Source: Escherichia phage HMD-9
Strand: one strand, 5' to 3'
Sequence record: PV287714.1
Length of the DNA stretch: 64,000 bases
The notes beneath the pieces are model-generated. The model saw only the letters and a list, made by a program, of their open reading frames with translations, did no database searches and was not told the DNA's origin. Of the stretch, positions 3,503-63,477 are shown piece after piece; positions within the stretch are counted from its first letter, which is position 1; the number at the start of each line of letters is the position of its first letter. The translations under genes were made by a program, and so were the position numbers.

Positions 3503-3546
3503 AGTATTTCCTTAGGTTAATTAAGATTTAAAAATCCGTGAGAATA

Positions 3547-3723
3547 TTATATTTCAAAGAGTTTATAAACTATTTCAACATCTCCTTTTGCCGCTTTATA
3601 ACCTTCAGCCCAAGATACAACCAAGTTTTTATCTGAAGATTCAAAGTCAGGCATTGGACTTTCATCAATGTTCACACAGTATGTTTCTTCATTTTCGTCA
3701 AACCAAATAGTTAAAATAGTCAT
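3547..3723 (-). CDS. small hypothetical protein (58 aa)
   Basis: ORF below the track cutoff; SD GGAGAAATAA before ATG at 3723-3721; MTILTIWFDENEETYCVNIDESPMPDF.. Confidence 0.4.
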   Translation of the reverse strand: MTILTIWFDENEETYCVNIDESPMPDFESSDKNLVVSWAEGYKAAKGDVEIVYKLFEI

Positions 3724-3791: not shown

Positions 3792-4055
3792 TTATTTCAT
3801 ATTATTGAAATATTCTTCTGCGATTTCGTCGTTATCATGGTAAACTTTAGAAGACAGTTTAACATAACCTTCAGCAGTGAACATGTTAATCACAACCTTT
3901 ACAGTATACCACTGACCGTCTTCATTACCCATTACTGCGTAAGTTTCAAACATCGGATGGTCAGGACCGATAACTTTAATATCATTCACTGTACGACCGA
4001 AATCTTCTGAAACGCATTTCATAAAGAAGTTGAACAGTTCGCCGTAATTATCCAT
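3792..4055 (-). CDS. hypothetical protein
   Basis: ORF-track start 4109 lies inside the upstream promoter; ATG at 4055 follows SD GGAGAATGAA (MDNYGELFNFF..). Confidence 0.5.
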   Translation of the reverse strand: MDNYGELFNFFMKCVSEDFGRTVNDIKVIGPDHPMFETYAVMGNEDGQWYTVKVVINMFTAEGYVKLSSKVYHDNDEIAEEYFNNMK

Positions 4056-4099: not shown

Positions 4100-4129
4100 A
4101 TAGTACCACGGAAGAACATGGATGTAAAC
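4100..4129 (-). promoter_or_regulatory. T4 early-type sigma70 promoter (-35 GTTTAC, 18-nt spacer, -10 TACTAT)
   Basis: minus-sense GTTTAC-N18-TACTAT upstream of ORF 3792-4055. Confidence 0.5.
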
Positions 4130-5584: not shown

Positions 5585-5846
5585 TGTACGAAACGCCGGG
5601 ATTCGAACCCGGTTATTAAGCAGTTGACGCTACTCAATATTTTAAAAGGCCATATCTCGACCATATCCGAACGTTCCGTCAAAAACGCTACTCGGCTTAC
5701 GGCAAAGATATTTCCTCGAATCGATAATTCGGTGCGCCGTTTCAGCTGTGATAGTAAAGAACCAGAACACAGTAAAACTGTGGGAGGAACTATACTCCAT
5801 GGAACATCAGTCCGACGACTTACCGGTAGCGACCCGGTTTCTTGTT
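5585..5846 (-). ncRNA. ORF-free structured tract inside the tRNA operon; candidate stable small RNA(s) (T4 species 1/2-like)
   Basis: canonical T-arm CCGGGTTCGAATCCCGG at 5596-5612; 3' strand CGTTTCG can pair with TGAAACG about 150 nt upstream; bounded by tRNA-Arg and the operon terminator. Confidence 0.35.
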
Positions 5847-5922
5847 TGGTCGAGGCAGTAGGGGTCGAACCTACGACCTAGGACTTAGAAGGTCCTTGCT
5901 CTTCCTTCTGAGCTATGCCTCG
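5847..5922 (-). tRNA. tRNA-Arg (anticodon UCU)
   Basis: cloverleaf by hand: acceptor CGAGGCA/TGCCTCG, D-arm GCTC..GAGC, anticodon loop CTTCTAA, T-arm GTAGG-TTCGACC-CCTAC, CCA encoded. Confidence 0.85.
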
Positions 5923-5926
5923 GATT

Positions 5927-6001
5927 TGGCGGACATGCATGGATTCGAACCATGGACCAATTGATTAACAGTCAACTGCTCTACCACTGAGCTACACATC
6001 C
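5927..6001 (-). tRNA. tRNA-Asn (anticodon GUU)
   Basis: acceptor GGATGTG/CATGTCC (two G-U pairs), D-arm GCTC-AGTGGTA-GAGC, anticodon loop CTGTTAA, T-arm CATGG-TTCGAAT-CCATG, CCA encoded. Confidence 0.75.
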
Positions 6002-6005
6002 AAAT

Positions 6006-6092
6006 TGGTGGGGAGTGATGGAGTCGAACCACCCGAGTCGCAATGACAATGGATTTACAGTCCACACCGCTACCTCTACGGGATAACTCCCC
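6006..6092 (-). tRNA. tRNA-like gene, probable type-II tRNA-Tyr (anticodon GUA) with irregular D-arm
   Basis: acceptor GGGGAGT/ACTCCCC, anticodon stem-loop TGGA-CTGTAAA-TCCA, long variable arm, T-arm GGTGG-TTCGACT-CCATC, CCA encoded; D-arm pairing is non-canonical. Confidence 0.5.
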
Positions 6093-6101
6093 TAATTAAT
6101 T

Positions 6102-6176
6102 TGGTGGCCCTGGGTGGAATTGAACCACCATCTGGCGATTATGAGTCGCTTGCTTGAACCTTCCAGCTACAGGGCC
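6102..6176 (-). tRNA. tRNA with anticodon CAU (Ile2/lysidine type by T4 position; Met not excluded)
   Basis: acceptor GGCCCTG/CAGGGCC, anticodon loop CTCATAA, T-arm GGTGG-TTCAATT-CCACC, CCA encoded; 1 nt from tRNA-Thr. Confidence 0.8.
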
Positions 6177-6177
6177 T

Positions 6178-6253
6178 TGGTGCTGATTGACGGAATCGAA
6201 CCGCCGACCTTCTCATTACAAGTGAGTTGCTCTACCTACTGAGCTAAATCAGC
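6178..6253 (-). tRNA. tRNA-Thr (anticodon UGU)
   Basis: acceptor GCTGATT/AATCAGC, D-arm GCTC-AGTAGGTA-GAGC, anticodon loop CTTGTAA, CCA encoded. Confidence 0.85.
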
Positions 6254-6258
6254 AAAAC

Positions 6259-6348
6259 TGGCGGAGGCGATAGGATTTGAACCTATGAGTCGCCGGAGCG
6301 ACTGCCGGTTTTCAAGACCGGTGCATTAAACCACTCTGCCACGCCTCC
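6259..6348 (-). tRNA. tRNA-Ser (anticodon UGA), type II
   Basis: acceptor GGAGGCG/CGCCTCC, anticodon loop CTTGAAA, long variable arm, T-arm ATAGG-TTCAAAT-CCTAT, CCA encoded. Confidence 0.85.
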
Positions 6349-6350
6349 AG

Positions 6351-6424
6351 TCTCCGTGGCAGGATTTGAACCTGCGACATTCTGCTCCCAAAGCAGACGC
6401 TCTACCAAACTGAGCTACACGGAG
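6351..6424 (-). tRNA. tRNA-Pro (anticodon UGG)
   Basis: acceptor CTCCGTG/CACGGAG, D-arm GCTC-AGTTTGGTA-GAGC, anticodon loop TTTGGGA, T-arm GCAGG-TTCAAAT-CCTGC; CCA not encoded; 2 nt from tRNA-Ser. Confidence 0.85.
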
Positions 6425-6434
6425 TAAATTAAAT

Positions 6435-6508
<74 letters not shown>

Positions 6509-6513
6509 AAATT

Positions 6514-6600
6514 TGGTGCGAGAAGTGGGACTCGAACCCACAAGGAAATCATTCCGCAGCATTTTAAGTGCTGTGCCTTTACCAATTTGACCATTCTCGC
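6514..6600 (-). tRNA. tRNA-Leu (anticodon UAA), type II
   Basis: acceptor GCGAGAA/TTCTCGC, anticodon stem-loop CAGCA-CTTAAAA-TGCTG, long variable arm, T-arm GTGGG-TTCGAGT-CCCAC, CCA encoded. Confidence 0.85.
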
Positions 6601-6601
6601 G

Positions 6602-6674
6602 CTGGGAATAAAGGACTCGAACCTTTGCATCTAGCAGTCAAAGTGCTATGCCTTACCAACTTGGCTAATTCCCA
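6602..6674 (-). tRNA. tRNA-Gln (anticodon UUG)
   Basis: acceptor TGGGAAT/ATTCCCA, anticodon stem-loop TAGCA-CTTTGAC-TGCTA, T-arm AAAGG-TTCGAGT-CCTTT; CCA not encoded; 1 nt from tRNA-Leu. Confidence 0.85.
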
Positions 6675-7061: not shown

Positions 7062-7445
7062 TCAGCCTTCATCAACAATAGTATGCGTATTGGCATTTAC
7101 GATTTGCCACCAATCAAAGCGATTAGAACCATAATCTGGTTTGTTTTCATTTTCTTTGATAATGTCACGAAGTTCATCTTCAGTAGCGGCTTTCGCGATT
7201 AAATCAGCATATCCACCACGAGGATAATAATTATCACCTGCAAAAAGTAAAAAGTTTGGTTTAATATTATTGAACTCTTCAAGAGTAATAACTTTTCCTG
7301 ATGGTAGTTGAACAATCTCTACATATTTATATCCTAATTTTTGAGCAGCATCTACTGCTTCAAGCAAAGTATCATGAGCCCATCCAATTTGACAACCTGG
7401 CTTTTCAGATGGATTAGCCTGATAATCCGCGTACACTTTATACAT
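7062..7445 (-). CDS. hypothetical protein
   Basis: ORF-track start 7454 is GTG; ATG at 7445 follows SD AGGTGA (MYKVYADYQANPSEK..). Confidence 0.55.
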   Translation of the reverse strand: MYKVYADYQANPSEKPGCQIGWAHDTLLEAVDAAQKLGYKYVEIVQLPSGKVITLEEFNNIKPNFLLFAGDNYYPRGGYADLIAKAATEDELRDIIKENENKPDYGSNRFDWWQIVNANTHTIVDEG

Positions 7446-7446
7446 T

Positions 7447-7632
7447 CTATTCACCTTTAGAAATTTTATCCATAACGATAGCGATTAAACCAATTAAAAA
7501 TGCTACTACAAGTGAAAAAACATTTTCTGCTGTAGTCAATAATCCGCATATAAATCCAACAAACATTGAAAAACTAAAAGCGGAAGCAGAAATTGCAATA
7601 GCAACATTTCGAATTAATTCACAACGTTTCAT
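7447..7632 (-). CDS. small hydrophobic membrane protein (61 aa)
   Basis: SD GGAGAATAAA before ATG; two hydrophobic segments (AIAISASAFSFSMFVGFICGLL, VFSLVVAFLIGLIAIVM). Confidence 0.5.
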   Translation of the reverse strand: MKRCELIRNVAIAISASAFSFSMFVGFICGLLTTAENVFSLVVAFLIGLIAIVMDKISKGE

Positions 7633-7651
7633 TTTATTCTCCTCTGTAGTT

Positions 7652-7679
7652 GATAGGGTAATAGTATCACTACCCTATC
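7652..7679. repeat. stem-loop GATAGGGTA-N10-TACCCTATC of a promoter/stem-loop cassette, copy 1 (complete)
   Basis: perfect 9-bp inverted repeat around ATAGTATCAC; partial copies at 8033-8060 and 8372-8399. Confidence 0.6.
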
Positions 7680-7690
7680 TAAAAGTAAAC
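7661..7690 (-). promoter_or_regulatory. T4 early-type promoter (GTTTAC-N18-TACTAT)
   Basis: minus-sense -35 GTTTAC (7690-7685) and -10 TACTAT (7666-7661) upstream of ORF 7447-7632. Confidence 0.55.
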
Positions 7691-7702
7691 TGTTTTTATA
7701 AA

Positions 7703-8011
7703 CTATTTTATTCCGCGTGATGCAATTGTATTCTGTCGTTTAGCACCAGTTTGTTTAAAGTCATGATTGTCGATTTGATCGGTACGAGCAACTCCGAATG
7801 ATGATTTAATCTTAGCTTTAGATCCTTTAGTTATAGAAATAAACATCTCGGAAGCCCCTTTCTTAAAGTCCGAAGCAATTACTTCAACACCGTTCTTAGC
7901 AAGTGACTTCAGAATTGCCTCCGCGTACTCATCATCAAGACTCGCTTGAGTATTAATAACGAATGTCTTTGGTGCAGCCGCTTCATTGATAAATTCTTTA
8001 AATGTTTTCAT
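7703..8011 (-). CDS. internal-protein-like protein with capsid-targeting sequence (ipI locus)
   Basis: 102 aa; MKTFKEFINE|AAAPKTF fits the CTS pattern; lies between the tRNA operon and 57B where T4 carries ipI. Confidence 0.6.
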   Translation of the reverse strand: MKTFKEFINEAAAPKTFVINTQASLDDEYAEAILKSLAKNGVEVIASDFKKGASEMFISITKGSKAKIKSSFGVARTDQIDNHDFKQTGAKRQNTIASRGIK

Positions 8012-8041
8012 TTTATTTTCCTAATTAATTTTGATGAGATA

Positions 8042-8071
8042 ATAGTATCACTACCCTATCTAAAAGTAAAC
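8042..8071 (-). promoter_or_regulatory. T4 early-type promoter (GTTTAC-N18-TACTAT), cassette copy 2
   Basis: same spacing and hexamers as 7661-7690; upstream of ORF 7703-8011. Confidence 0.55.
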
Positions 8072-8344
8072 TCATTTTAAATAAATTGCGTATTTTTTAT
8101 AGCCACCAGGCTCGTGTCGAAGACCCCTATCATTAGCAAAACGCTCAATGTTGTTAATTTGATTCTGGTCAAGTTCAGAGATGTCAAACACGAAATAGTT
8201 ACGTTTGTTACCAACTGTTACATAGTCAGTTAAATCAATACCATATAGGTAATTGATGTCAGCAATCATAGTCTTGACAGCTTTGCTAATTTTTACTTTT
8301 TCGTTAAAAGTAGCTTCATTGATAAATTCTTTAAATGTTTTCAT
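8072..8344 (-). CDS. internal-protein-like protein with capsid-targeting sequence (ipI locus)
   Basis: ORF-track start 8356 is TTG; ATG at 8344 follows SD GGAGAATAAA giving MKTFKEFINE|ATFNEK.. Confidence 0.6.
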   Translation of the reverse strand: MKTFKEFINEATFNEKVKISKAVKTMIADINYLYGIDLTDYVTVGNKRNYFVFDISELDQNQINNIERFANDRGLRHEPGGYKKYAIYLK

Positions 8345-8380
8345 TTTATTCTCCAATCACTCATTTGTTTTGATAGGGTA

Positions 8381-8410
8381 ATAGTATCACAACTAAAACC
8401 CCGTGTAAAC
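8381..8410 (-). promoter_or_regulatory. T4 early-type promoter (GTTTAC-N18-TACTAT), cassette copy 3
   Basis: same spacing and hexamers; upstream of ORF 8072-8344. Confidence 0.55.
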
Positions 8411-8422
8411 AACTTTGTGAAA

Positions 8423-9119
<697 letters not shown>

Positions 9120-56177: not shown

Positions 56178-56209
56178 TTTGTGTTCCTCATGTTATGTCA
56201 GTAAGATTA

Positions 56210-56413
56210 CTATAACACAACATGAGGGACTTGTAAACTACATTTTGAACTTTTTAGTACGCGTAATAGGCATGCGTCGATTTTATACTGTTTCATTGTT
56301 TGAAGAGCAGTATCAAAAACAGCATTAATGACACCAATTGGATTTCCACCCATGTTTTTAAGCTTAACTAATGATAGTTTCTCATTAACACCTATCATTA
56401 CGATATGCATCAT
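56210..56413 (-). pseudogene. alt N-terminal duplicate, distal fragment (homologous to Alt residues about 65-120)
   Basis: MMHIVMIGVNEKLSLVKLKNMGGNPIGVINAVFDTALQTMKQYKIDACLLRVLKS aligns with Alt MMHIVPFTLTAKGSIAKLKGLGPSPINYINSVFTVAMQTMRQYKIDACMLRILKS. Confidence 0.6.
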
Positions 56414-63019: not shown

Positions 63020-63087
63020 TTTTATTCTCCGAGATGTTTAATTGCGGTACAGGTATATAATATCATATCCTGTACCAAAGTAAACAA

Positions 63088-63447: not shown

Positions 63448-63477
63448 ATACTATCACAAAGGAACTATACTGTAAAC
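63448..63477 (-). promoter_or_regulatory. T4 early-type promoter (GTTTAC-N18-TAGTAT)
   Basis: minus-sense -35 GTTTAC and -10 TAGTAT with 18-nt spacer upstream of ORF 63088-63420. Confidence 0.45.

Follow-up and report, generated by a model that had tools for sequence, protein, structure and literature searches.

We analysed a window of 64,000 nucleotides from Escherichia phage HMD-9 (PV287714.1). The window belongs to a Tequatrovirus; its closest match is Escherichia phage 236Ecol005PP (98.4%), and 935 phage records match it. As in T4, the genes run 1-57A-57B-(IP genes)-trna.4-tRNAs, with 11 tRNAs at 5586-6674. Between a 57B/acb1 homolog and a trna.4 homolog, which form the borders of the locus, lie two internal protein (IP) genes and three cassettes, each cassette being one copy of a promoter module:

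8423-8878, minus strand: 57B/acb1 homolog, the upstream conserved border (PHROG 755; named Acb1 / 57B in the closest relatives).
8345-8410, minus strand: cassette 3, with -35 GTTTAC at 8405-8410, spacer at 8387-8404, TGn and -10 TACTAT at 8381-8386, 5'UTR of type beta, GGAG at 8351-8354, downstream arm TACCCTATC at 8372-8380 and an alternative upstream arm GGGGT at 8398-8402.
8072-8344, minus strand: ORF-A, 90 aa, internal head protein family F1 (PHROG 7673 'internal head protein', E 2e-53).
8012-8071, minus strand: cassette 2, with -35 at 8066-8071, spacer at 8048-8065, -10 at 8042-8047 and 5'UTR of type alpha.
8033-8041, minus strand: mismatched downstream arm of cassette 2, TATCTCATC.
7703-8011, minus strand: ORF-B, 102 aa, internal head protein family F2 (PHROG 2667 'internal head protein', E 2e-41).
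7633-7690, minus strand: cassette 1, with -35 at 7685-7690, spacer at 7667-7684, -10 at 7661-7666, 5'UTR of type gamma and GGAG at 7639-7642.
7652-7679, minus strand: hairpin of cassette 1, GATAGGGTAGUG-AUAC-UAUUACCCUAUC, a stem of 12 bp, 2 of them G.U, around the -10.
7447-7632, minus strand: trna.4 homolog, 61 aa, predicted membrane protein, the downstream conserved border (PHROG 1692).

The 57B/acb1 gene matched itself at 100% in tblastn and is 74-100% identical over 36 IMG/VR loci, and the trna.4 homolog is 100% identical to the T4 trna.4 product (tblastn). On the evidence of their sequence, the two ORFs between these borders are internal head protein genes. Both N-termini read MKTFKEFINE|A and fit MKT(Y/F)(K/Q)EFIxE with an I/L-x-E protease site, the capsid-targeting sequence MKTFKEFINE corresponding to codons 8315-8344 in ORF-A and 7982-8011 in ORF-B; packaging and cleavage of the products are predicted. 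Family F1 accounts for 23 of the IP genes collected from relatives. The F1 + F2 allele was also found in many GenBank phages. The original prediction had spoken of small ORFs flanked by cassettes; the flanking is as described, and the identity of these ORFs as internal-protein genes of the IP1 locus had gone unrecognised. For annotation, 'hypothetical' ORFs between 57B and trna.4 that start with MKT(Y/F)(K/Q)EF can be named internal head proteins.

The cassettes and IP genes of the window are one more allele (F1 + F2) of the hypervariable T-even IP1 locus. Repoila, Tetart, Bouet and Krisch (EMBO J 1994) reportedly described a conserved motif at this locus and gene shuffling via recombination in the conserved block, work that is cited in PMC2839356, PMC4122927 and PMC3012670. 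In their account, the locus resembles ours in its position between 57B and trna.4, in its variable number of IP-like ORFs and in the block of promoter, translation start and first ten codons that precedes each IP ORF. We saw no essential difference from that account; the window is a further allele, in which cassette 1 would drive a non-IP gene. Among the relatives that we compared, the number, identity and order of the ORFs likewise vary, with junctions in the conserved block. The system is already known, and our analysis agrees with Repoila 1994 and with the papers on promoter/stem-loop (PeSL) cassettes (Arbiol 2010, Comeau 2014).

The three copies of the module GTTTAC-N18-TACTAT that the original prediction had reported are exact matches on the minus strand (7661-7690, 8042-8071 and 8381-8410), with a further copy at 4100-4129. 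With one mismatch allowed, the window holds 6 matches where 0.5 are expected, and none of 100 shuffles reaches 6. The shared core, ATAGTATCAC, which had also been reported, occurs exactly three times in the window, against 0.18 expected. The promoter can be written as TTTACA or TTTACT, 17 nt and TACTAT with TG ahead, which fits TTTACW-N17-TAYWAT. Cassette 3 was scored as a sigma-70-like site with TG in a promoter scan, the -35 of cassette 2 lies directly 3' of the ORF-A stop TGA (8072-8074), and cassette 1 is homologous to a promoter-like site ahead of T4 trna.4. Consensus and homology to the upstream regions of T4 ipI and trna.4 suggest that the cassettes are active promoters, and cassette 1 is predicted to drive the trna.4 homolog and, as judged from the homologous T4 region, the tRNA operon too. 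No usable map of where T4 transcripts start and end was found in the literature, so the start sites of the cassettes (~7654, 8035 and 8374, minus strand) are predictions.

The promoter and core had been correctly delimited, but the real repeat is longer. In copies 2 and 3 the common stretch runs on through the ribosome site and the ATG as far as codon 11, with a 42-nt block (7980-8021 and 8313-8354) that is 98% identical and a 24-nt gene start, ATGAAAACATTTAAAGAATTTATC, that occurs twice with 0 mismatches. Copy 1, which precedes a non-IP gene, has in common with the other two the promoter and ribosome site only; its whole 18-nt spacer is identical to that of copy 2. The cassette repeats measure 30-76 nt and are spaced 340-380 bp apart. 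Such likeness might come merely from a shared T4 early-promoter consensus, with genes gained and lost by illegitimate recombination at gene ends. T4 early promoters genome-wide have in common the -35, TGn, the -10 and further positions (PMC2988021), and a downstream CTATCAACTAC is present at many unrelated promoters. The identical spacers of copies 1 and 2 and the 42-nt block of copies 2 and 3 nevertheless exceed the consensus.

For the comparison of loci, we took relatives from GenBank records; an IMG/VR pattern scan with GTGATACTATTAYCYYATCA gave 14 stretches, mostly contigs already collected. Across 48 loci we counted 17 IP families in combinatorial order, with 0-4 genes per locus, and in one locus (L006) the order is reversed to F2-F1. 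According to the original prediction, the ORFs have been shuffled by recombination at PeSL-type cassettes, and a comparison with related T4-type genomes would reveal it. In T4 and 19 other loci (20 in all), every breakpoint of a gene-content change falls inside cassettes, colinear homology with the window ending at 7627-7697, 7990-8055 and 8313-8428, although this coincidence is partly built in, as homology must end near gene borders when a gene is replaced. Stronger evidence comes from homology that runs into the cassettes from both sides, and from an overlap: in two loci with ORF-B only (L033 and L066), the single cassette aligns to both cassettes 2 and 3 of the window, with a 76-nt overlap. 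Spacers, 5'UTR types and genes also occur in discordant combinations across loci; each of the three 5'UTR types stands ahead of several different genes, and the spacer type follows the upstream gene. In relatives, the cassette between F1 and F2 (F1>F2) has a spacer that differs from the window's, which points to probable gene conversion in the window lineage. That spacer, the discordant combinations and the 76-nt overlap all argue against resemblance through consensus alone, an explanation that we regard as very improbable. The proposal of PeSL-kind shuffling, on the other hand, is supported by the breakpoints, the discordant combinations and the overlap.

The shuffling itself is evident from comparison between genomes, and we infer that recombination within the cassettes produced it. 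Each cassette would be a portable expression unit that combines an early promoter of the T4 type (TTTACA/T, a spacer of 17 bp, TGn and TACTAT) with one of a few alternative 5'UTRs, its ribosome site and ATG. Cassettes of IP genes would also carry ten capsid-targeting codons (MKTFKEFINE), which would take the protein to the prohead, where the tag would then be removed by the prohead protease. Because the cassette repeats recur within the genome and in co-infecting relatives, efficient phage homologous recombination could cross over there, whether at GTTTAC, within the GTGATACTAT core or in the stretch that holds the ribosome site, ATG and targeting sequence. Such crossovers would insert, delete, swap and reorder IP genes and leave expression and packaging undisturbed. 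T4 recombines experimentally at microhomologies of 6-10 bp (PMC9391042). We consider it likely, with good confidence, that the locus as a whole is to be read in this way, as an IP1 locus whose genes are shuffled by crossover within portable cassettes.

Internal proteins enter the cell along with the injected DNA and counteract host restriction: GmrSD is blocked by IPI*, and further enzymes of the GmrSD type by Ip2 and Ip3 (PMC12373910, PMC3012670). Swapping of IP genes at built-in homology patches, with promoter and packaging signal kept, would offer a ready-made route to host-range change. For engineering, the promoter, ribosome site and ten codons would make up a natural module for protein expression and packaging into T4-like heads. 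Integron gene cassettes are a conceptual analogue in which small adaptive genes are likewise exchanged as modules at repeated boundaries. Unlike them, the window has no integrase or attC, exchange would proceed by general homologous recombination, and each module has its own promoter.

PeSL cassettes join a strong early promoter, preceded by an AT-rich region, to a stem-loop, a ribosome site and a start codon (PMC2839356, PMC4122927). Their stem-loops often overlap the -10 box, and G-T pairs were noted in them (PMC2839356). Arbiol et al. 2010 called the elements of the T-even IP locus 'PeSL-like' and 'analogs, not homologs' (PMC2839356). The window has the early sigma-70-type consensus, the promoter stem-loop and the link to indel or replacement breakpoints of close relatives, and it is like PeSL in its composite build, in the stem-loop across the -10, in the indels that adjoin the cassettes and in the PST/T4 consensus TTTACW-N17-TAYWAT. 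In contrast to PeSL, the stems of the window are AT-richer and lack the G4...C4 tract, and the repeat reaches into the coding (targeting) sequence. Terminator activity and mini-circles were shown for RB49/phi1 only, the terminator activity for a G/C-rich stem of RB49. In the window, mini-circles excised by recombination between cassettes would measure 339 bp (cassettes 3 and 2), 381 bp (2 and 1) or 720 bp (3 and 1).

The inverted repeat brackets the -10, one arm lying in the spacer and the other over the predicted start. GATAGGGTA or its complement occurs at 7652-7660 and 7671-7679 in copy 1, a perfect 9-bp inverted repeat, and as one arm each in copy 2 (8052-8060) and copy 3 (8372-8380), all where the original prediction had placed them. 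In gene sense, copy 2 retains the upstream (spacer) arm and copy 3 the downstream (+1) arm. Pairing is still possible in copy 2 via two G.U pairs and one A.C mismatch, and in copy 3 GGGGT pairs with ACCCT. The sense RNA folds at -16.4, -7.3 and -11.5 kcal/mol in copies 1, 2 and 3, with z of -6.2 (0 of 200 shuffles as good), -2.2 and -2.7, respectively. The sense fold is better than the antisense fold in all three copies (-12.2 kcal/mol for the antisense strand of the cassette 1 hairpin). A chance inverted repeat was ruled out by permutation tests.

The arms of copies 2 and 3, which had been described as decaying, are indeed imperfect, but they are better read as crossover hybrids whose partners are compensated elsewhere. 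Both copies would look half-decayed because crossovers in the -10 core join arms of different parents. Simple decay of a once-perfect palindrome was rejected for copy 2: its spacer is that of copy 1, and its type of 5'UTR pairs with GATGAGGTA elsewhere. Copy 2 is better read as a probable hybrid cassette that joins the spacer of copy 1 to the 5'UTR partner of a GATGAGGTA spacer. In more than 12 sequenced phages the F1>F2 cassette is stable in its unpaired form; the hairpin is not needed at every cassette.

Arm sequences vary by cassette, and each has a compensated partner. The matched pairs across cassettes include GATAGGGTA/TACCCTATC, TGATGAGGTA/TACCTCATCA (T4 ipI), ATGGGATA/TATCCCAT, AGGGCTAT/ATAGCCCT, AGGGTTAT/ATAACCCT, TAGGACTA/TAGTCCTA and AGGTCTAT/ATAGACCT. 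In one register, 93.6% of the cells pair, against 31-71% in slid controls, and 3 pairs have changed on both sides. Stems of at least 7 bp occur in 38% of 63 distinct cassettes but in 9% with swapped arms. In the IP cassettes alone, rescue by G.U outnumbers rescue by A.C (5 cassettes against 1, or ~3 independent events against 1), a comparison that is underpowered.

Two other sites in the window had been named as related promoters without the stem-loop:

4100-4129, minus strand: early-promoter-like site without a perfect stem across the -10 (no perfect stem >4 bp).
63448-63477, minus strand: early-promoter-like site with TAGTAT, its spacer TCCTTTGT complementary to ACAAAGGA, which lies over the ribosome site downstream.

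This description holds for the first site, whose T4 homolog, at 70696, has a weaker long-range pairing between spacer and ribosome site (-11.6 kcal/mol). It fails for the second, which has TAGTAT with an inverted repeat and whose T4 homolog lies at 130310. Spacer/ribosome-site pairing is also present at 56209-56238 of the window, at T4 regB and denV and at other promoters, and a trna.4 cassette in which ACATCTCCATTTG is paired to CAAATGGAGATGT over the ribosome site is found in three loci (L004, L009 and L035).

In T4, stems of at least 7 bp are present at 13 of 43 early-promoter-like sites, compared with 1.7% in swap controls. The duplex energy of a promoter's own spacer with its downstream region averages -9.42, against -6.24 when swapped, and none of 5000 permutations reaches the observed mean. 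Promoters for the strand comparison were chosen by the mean energy of both strands, since choice by sense energy is biased; the sense strand is better in 15 of 17 strong pairs (mean difference -2.6 kcal/mol), compared with 61% of swap pairs (-0.7). In about half of the strong T4 cases the 3' arm sits on the ribosome site. Overall, about a third of T4 early promoters have the -10 bracketed by an inverted repeat that pairs better on the sense strand.

These data allow two further explanations of the complementarity to be weighed. Template switching within quasi-palindromic DNA as it is replicated, a process described for frameshifts in T4 rII, would copy one arm onto the other, so that complementarity would be upheld by mutation; this would account for the many perfect arms of different sequence, and the 'compensatory' changes would arise in one step. 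The process is strand-symmetric, however, and leaves the sense-strand G.U bias unexplained, as it does the targeting of ribosome sites, and in many phages imperfect hybrids, the F1>F2 cassette among them, have stayed uncorrected. We consider this explanation improbable. Alternatively, the repeat could act as DNA, as an operator for a dimeric repressor or as a cruciform that is cut by endonuclease VII and serves as a recombination hot spot. The repeat spans the -10 and +1, and an operator placed there would block RNA polymerase; the mechanism of T4 early-promoter shut-off is still unknown (PMC2988021), and Arbiol et al. speculated that the stem might be the target of a DNA-binding protein (PMC2839356). 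But the arms differ among cassettes of one genome and loop lengths range from 3 to 18 nt with a fixed 3' arm, so one sequence-specific protein cannot read all of them, and a single repressor operator was rejected. G.U pairs, which in DNA would be mismatches, also make the pairing systematically better on the sense strand, and a 3' arm on the ribosome site is relevant in RNA only. A role at the DNA level is therefore very unlikely.

An RNA hairpin is the remaining reading that we develop. A transcript started at the cassette itself would lack the 5' arm, and therefore only read-through RNA from upstream could form the hairpin. This might be a general design rule of T4-type early promoters, in which the spacer doubles as the 5' arm of a sense-RNA hairpin, a generalisation that we hold to be doubtful. 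Under such a rule the 3' arm would lie at +1 or on the downstream ribosome site, and RNA from an upstream promoter would be folded, insulated or untranslatable where local RNA would not. If the rule is true, what is known for late promoters (e, soc, 49 and I-TevI) would hold for about one early promoter in three as well, and each promoter-gene module would be autonomous, which would let modules be shuffled freely. In the reviews that we consulted we did not find the anti-ribosome-site class, the sense-strand bias or the genome-wide statistics.

For the window, our tentative view, held with slightly less than even confidence, is that the hairpin on read-through RNA attenuates or insulates between cistrons, or else stabilises the 3' end of the upstream cistron, as was proposed for PeSL stem-loops. 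An intrinsic terminator was rejected as a candidate: the hairpins have no U-tract, being followed by AACUACAGAGGAG and similar sequences, and a scan of 7300-9000 for intrinsic terminators found 0 terminator-like sites, which makes classical termination unlikely. A more specific possibility is that the 3' arm blocks downstream translation on read-through RNA. In T4 e, soc, 49 and I-TevI a hairpin encloses the promoter, so that the local RNA lacks the 5' arm and only read-through RNA folds (PMC3014915), and the window shares the promoter within the hairpin and a fold open to read-through RNA only. The blocking geometry occurs at the other early promoters described above (63448-63477, 56209-56238, T4 regB and denV, and the trna.4 cassette of the three loci). 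The T4 examples are, by contrast, late promoters whose 3' arm hides the ribosome site, whereas the window's are of early type and their arm stops short. We judge a translation block at these cassettes to have a small probability: the downstream 9-nt arms of the three window cassettes stop 9, 11 and 17 nt upstream of the AGGA/GGAG ribosome-site motif, and in longer folds of all three the ribosome site stays unpaired.

Genes of this region are encoded on the minus strand. The region matched 935 phage records, the best being Escherichia phage 236Ecol005PP (Tequatrovirus, 98.4%), and its genes follow in the order dNMP kinase (gene 1), 57A, 57B/acb1, two small ORFs (ORF-A and ORF-B), a trna.4 homolog, trna.3, trna.2 and eleven tRNA genes.

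Genes between 57B and trna.4
8423-8878, minus strand: 57B/acb1
8072-8344, minus strand: ORF-A, 90 aa, PHROG 7673 "internal head protein"
7703-8011, minus strand: ORF-B, 102 aa, PHROG 2667 "internal head protein"
7447-7632, minus strand: trna.4 homolog

Both small ORF products begin with MKTFKEFINE, the capsid-targeting sequence, the sole conserved part of T-even internal proteins, which otherwise differ widely (PMC3012670). In T4, a single gene, ipI, occupies the position of the two ORFs. Gene order, internal head protein matches and capsid-targeting starts together indicate that this is the internal protein 1 (IP1) locus, a locus that Repoila et al. (1994) reportedly found to be polymorphic. 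Both proteins would presumably be packaged and cleaved.

The original prediction placed three copies of a promoter with a shared core at 7661-7690, 8042-8071 and 8381-8410. We confirmed this observation: all three read GTTTAC-N18-TACTAT with 0 mismatches, and the core ATAGTATCAC occurs 3 times versus 0.18 expected. With ≤1 mismatch there are six matches versus 0.5 expected from shuffles. Of two sites described as related, 4100-4129 matches with 0 mismatches, whereas 63448-63477 has TAGTAT in place of TACTAT; although it was said to be without a stem-loop, its spacer is complementary over 8 bp to the ribosome site downstream. This hexamer and complementarity had been missed, as had the extension of the repeat over the ribosome site, ATG and first codons (7980-8021 and 8313-8354 are 98% identical, and the first 24 coding bases of ORF-A and ORF-B are the same).

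Promoter cassettes, in gene sense (minus strand)
8381-8410, cassette 3: -35 GTTTAC 8405-8410; spacer 8387-8404; TGA-TACTAT with -10 hexamer 8381-8386; downstream arm TACCCTATC 8372-8380; 5'UTR 36 nt ending GGAGAATAAA; predicted to drive ORF-A (ATG 8342-8344)
8042-8071, cassette 2: -35 8066-8071, abutting the ORF-A stop; spacer 8048-8065; -10 8042-8047; downstream arm TATCTCATC 8033-8041; 5'UTR 30 nt ending AGGAAAATAAA; predicted to drive ORF-B
7661-7690, cassette 1: -35 7685-7690; spacer 7667-7684, same as that of cassette 2; -10 7661-7666; downstream arm TACCCTATC 7652-7660; 5'UTR 28 nt ending GGAGAATAAA; predicted to drive the trna.4 homolog

Read as sigma-70 promoters, the cassettes have TTTAC(A/T) and an extended -10 separated by 17 bp, and cassette 3 was listed in a sigma-70-type promoter scan. 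The cassettes fit the PST/T4 consensus for promoter-early stem-loop (PeSL) cassettes, TTTACW-N17-TAYWAT (PMC4122927), and probably fire as early promoters, with predicted transcription starts near 7654, 8035 and 8374. GGAG, the target of the RegB endoribonuclease, is present in the ribosome sites of cassettes 1 (7639-7642) and 3 (8351-8354), and cassette 2 has AGGAAAA in its place (8012-8022), so the two IP genes may differ in RegB sensitivity.

We compared 36 loci from IMG/VR downstream of 57B homologs, the whole T4 genome and 13 GenBank Tequatrovirus/Mosigvirus loci (handles beginning with L; L001 is the T4 locus). Across 48 loci there are 17 IP families in combinatorial arrangements (gene counts per locus run from zero to four), and locus L006 has the order F2-F1, opposite to the F1-F2 of the window (F1 and F2 are the families of ORF-A and ORF-B). 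When each cassette is split up, its segments are discordant across loci. The spacer and the 14 nt before the -35 travel with the upstream gene, and three 5'UTR types, alpha tacctcatcaaaattaattaggaaaataaa, beta taccctatcaaaacaaatgagtgattggagaataaa and gamma taccctatcaactactgaggagaataaa, each precede several different genes, all three being found before F1. Such discordance implies that crossovers must have taken place in two regions, the -10 core and the block of ribosome site, ATG and targeting sequence.

In direct alignments, colinear homology ends inside the cassettes (window coordinates): at 7670 and 8323 against T4; 7697 and 8322-8324 against L003, L034, L067 and L068; 8055 and 8313 against L033 and L066; 7627-7673 and 8323-8422 against L058; and 7650-7670 against L063. 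Gene replacement itself forces homology to end near gene borders, and the informative evidence is that homology enters the cassettes from both sides, and overlaps. L033 and L066 carry ORF-B only, and their single cassette aligns to both cassettes 2 and 3 of the window with an overlap of 76 nt, the footprint that would be expected of a crossover between these two. The spacer shared by cassettes 1 and 2 of the window is replaced at cassette 2 by ttttaaatagggttgtgg in most relatives, suggesting that adjacent cassettes underwent gene conversion in the window lineage. These comparisons support the earlier interpretation that cassette recombination shuffled the ORFs. The mosaics would arise by homologous recombination, possibly through excised circles; in T4 experiments, genes were amplified and deleted via recombination at 6-10-bp microhomologies (PMC9391042).

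In T4 (L001), the sequence after ipI, aaatatttcacaaagttGTTTACatagggtttt, repeats that after 57B, aataatttcacaaagttGTTTACat (3538-3600 versus 3905-3960); recombination in the -35 region that brought ipI and one cassette into a 57B-trna.4 junction would leave such a repeat. Small tandem duplications within cassettes (L019 ~6173-6250, tactattacctcatcaagatactattacctcatcaa, with -10 and arm doubled; the L060 cassette between F1 and F2, aggaaaataaggaaaataaa, with the ribosome site doubled) look like scars of slippage or unequal crossover. In other T4-like genera (L004, L009, L013, L016, L019-L022, L024, L025, L027-L030, L035 and L038, ~5453 in each), the first IP gene lacks its own promoter and overlaps the 57B stop (..TTAAATGAAA..), and its translation therefore appears coupled to that of 57B/acb1; several later IP genes there join the preceding IP gene with no cassette between.

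A 9-mer search bore out the description of the arms: GATAGGGTA or its complement occurs once each in copies 2 and 3, and copy 1 has two, forming a perfect 9-bp inverted repeat. Across phages, the arms are conserved as complementarity and not as sequence. The T4 ipI pair is TGATGAGGTA/TACCTCATCA, and other phages have ATGGGATA/TATCCCAT, AGGGCTAT/ATAGCCCT, AGGGTTAT/ATAACCCT, TAGGACTA/TAGTCCTA and AGGTCTAT/ATAGACCT. In the single alignable register 93.6% of cells pair, versus 31-71% in slid controls, and three pairs are altered on both sides, that is, compensated. Perfect stems of at least 7 bp are present in 38% of 63 distinct cassettes, versus 9% with arms swapped between cassettes. The 3' arm constantly adjoins the -10 and loop length ranges from 3 to 18 nt, which fits a nucleic-acid hairpin but not an operator of fixed spacing.

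The arms had been described as decaying. The alpha 5'UTR directly after 57B pairs with a GATGAGGTA spacer (T4, L033, L066, L058, L068, L003 and L060), whereas in copy 2 of the window it is attached to the GATAGGGTA spacer. Copy 2 is thus a hybrid, and the apparent decay is mostly mis-pairing by recombination. The unpaired spacer of the cassette between F1 and F2 has nevertheless drifted further in many relatives; this suggests relaxed constraint after loss of the pairing partner, and shows that the hairpin is dispensable at this position. T4 has a second IP locus, not part of the window, and upstream of its ipII and ipIII genes (65799 and 66498; L040) the design is the same with other arms across the -10, TCCTAGAATTGTGA/TCACAATTCTAGGA (14 bp) and AATTGTGA/TCACAATT.

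Read in the direction of the genes, the spacer holds the upstream arm, and the downstream arm directly follows the -10 hexamer, over the predicted start (~7 nt downstream). RNA initiated at the cassette itself would therefore lack the 5' arm, and folding would be confined to RNA from upstream.

Predicted folds of the window cassettes
Copy 1: sense -16.4 kcal/mol, z -6.2; antisense -12.2; 12-bp stem, AUAC loop
Copy 2: sense -7.3 kcal/mol, z -2.2; antisense -3.5; two G.U pairs, one A.C mismatch
Copy 3: sense -11.5 kcal/mol, z -2.7; antisense -7.7; alternative arm GGGGU with ACCCU

In all three window cassettes the hairpin ends short of the ribosome site by coordinate check, and it lacks a U-tract. 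The hairpin would act on read-through RNA; tentatively, with slightly less than even confidence, we suggest that it attenuates or insulates between cistrons, or stabilises the 3' end of the cistron upstream.

The pattern extends across the T4 genome (NC_000866, L039-L042), where 43 sites fit GTTTAC-N17-19-TAnnnT. A perfect stem of at least 7 bp spans the -10 at 13 of the 43, versus 1.7% in swap controls. The mean duplex energy of each spacer with its own 60 nt downstream is -9.42 kcal/mol, versus -6.24 with swapped partners, and none of 5000 permutations was as low. The sense RNA is the more stable in 15 of the 17 strongest pairs, picked on the mean of both strands (mean difference -2.6 kcal/mol), versus 61% of swap pairs (-0.7 kcal/mol). 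In about half of the strong T4 cases the 3' arm lies on the ribosome site; this class includes regB, denV and sites 166807, 136336, 8218, 123093, 53943, 70696 and 130310. These T4 results argue for an action on read-through transcripts at the level of RNA, and against a cruciform, a DNA operator or an origin by mutation alone.

Three early-promoter-like sites of the window also have spacers complementary to downstream sequence (56209-56238, 63057-63085 and 63448-63477, all minus strand). Among them, CCTCATGTT/AACATGAGG and TCCTTTGT/ACAAAGGA lie over the next gene's ribosome site and GGTACAGG/CCTGTACC lies on either side of the -10. In T4, the site homologous to 56209-56238 has CCTCGTGTT, so an A-U pair of the window is G.U there.

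The IP-locus system is said to originate with Repoila 1994, and the F1+F2 arrangement is common among sequenced T4-like phages. The system is known, with the cassette concept from Arbiol 2010 and Comeau 2014. Arbiol et al. (PMC2839356) termed the T-even IP-locus elements analogs, not homologs, of PeSLs, reported PeSL stem-loops with G-T pairs mostly between -35 and -10 or overlapping the -10, and suggested attenuation of upstream transcription as their role; the general idea of promoter-overlapping stem-loops is therefore already published. A T4 transcription review (PMC2988021) makes no mention of palindromes at early promoters and describes early-promoter shut-off as unexplained. Only the genome-wide, sense-strand promoter-in-hairpin pattern, with its anti-ribosome-site class, may extend beyond this literature.

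Downstream, the trna.3 homolog (7062-7454, minus strand) has a ~200-bp homology break at 7241-7443 against T4, L003, L034 and L061-L063 and is colinear there with L033, L057, L059, L060 and L066-L068, so two alleles of its N-terminal half circulate, without flanking promoter cassettes. T4 has segB between tRNA Arg and Ile, and no segB homolog was seen in the window ORF list. The eleven tRNA genes (5586-6674; Lys, Asn, Tyr and Met among them) compare with eight in T4, and the predicted tRNA-Lys is unusually long at 94 nt.
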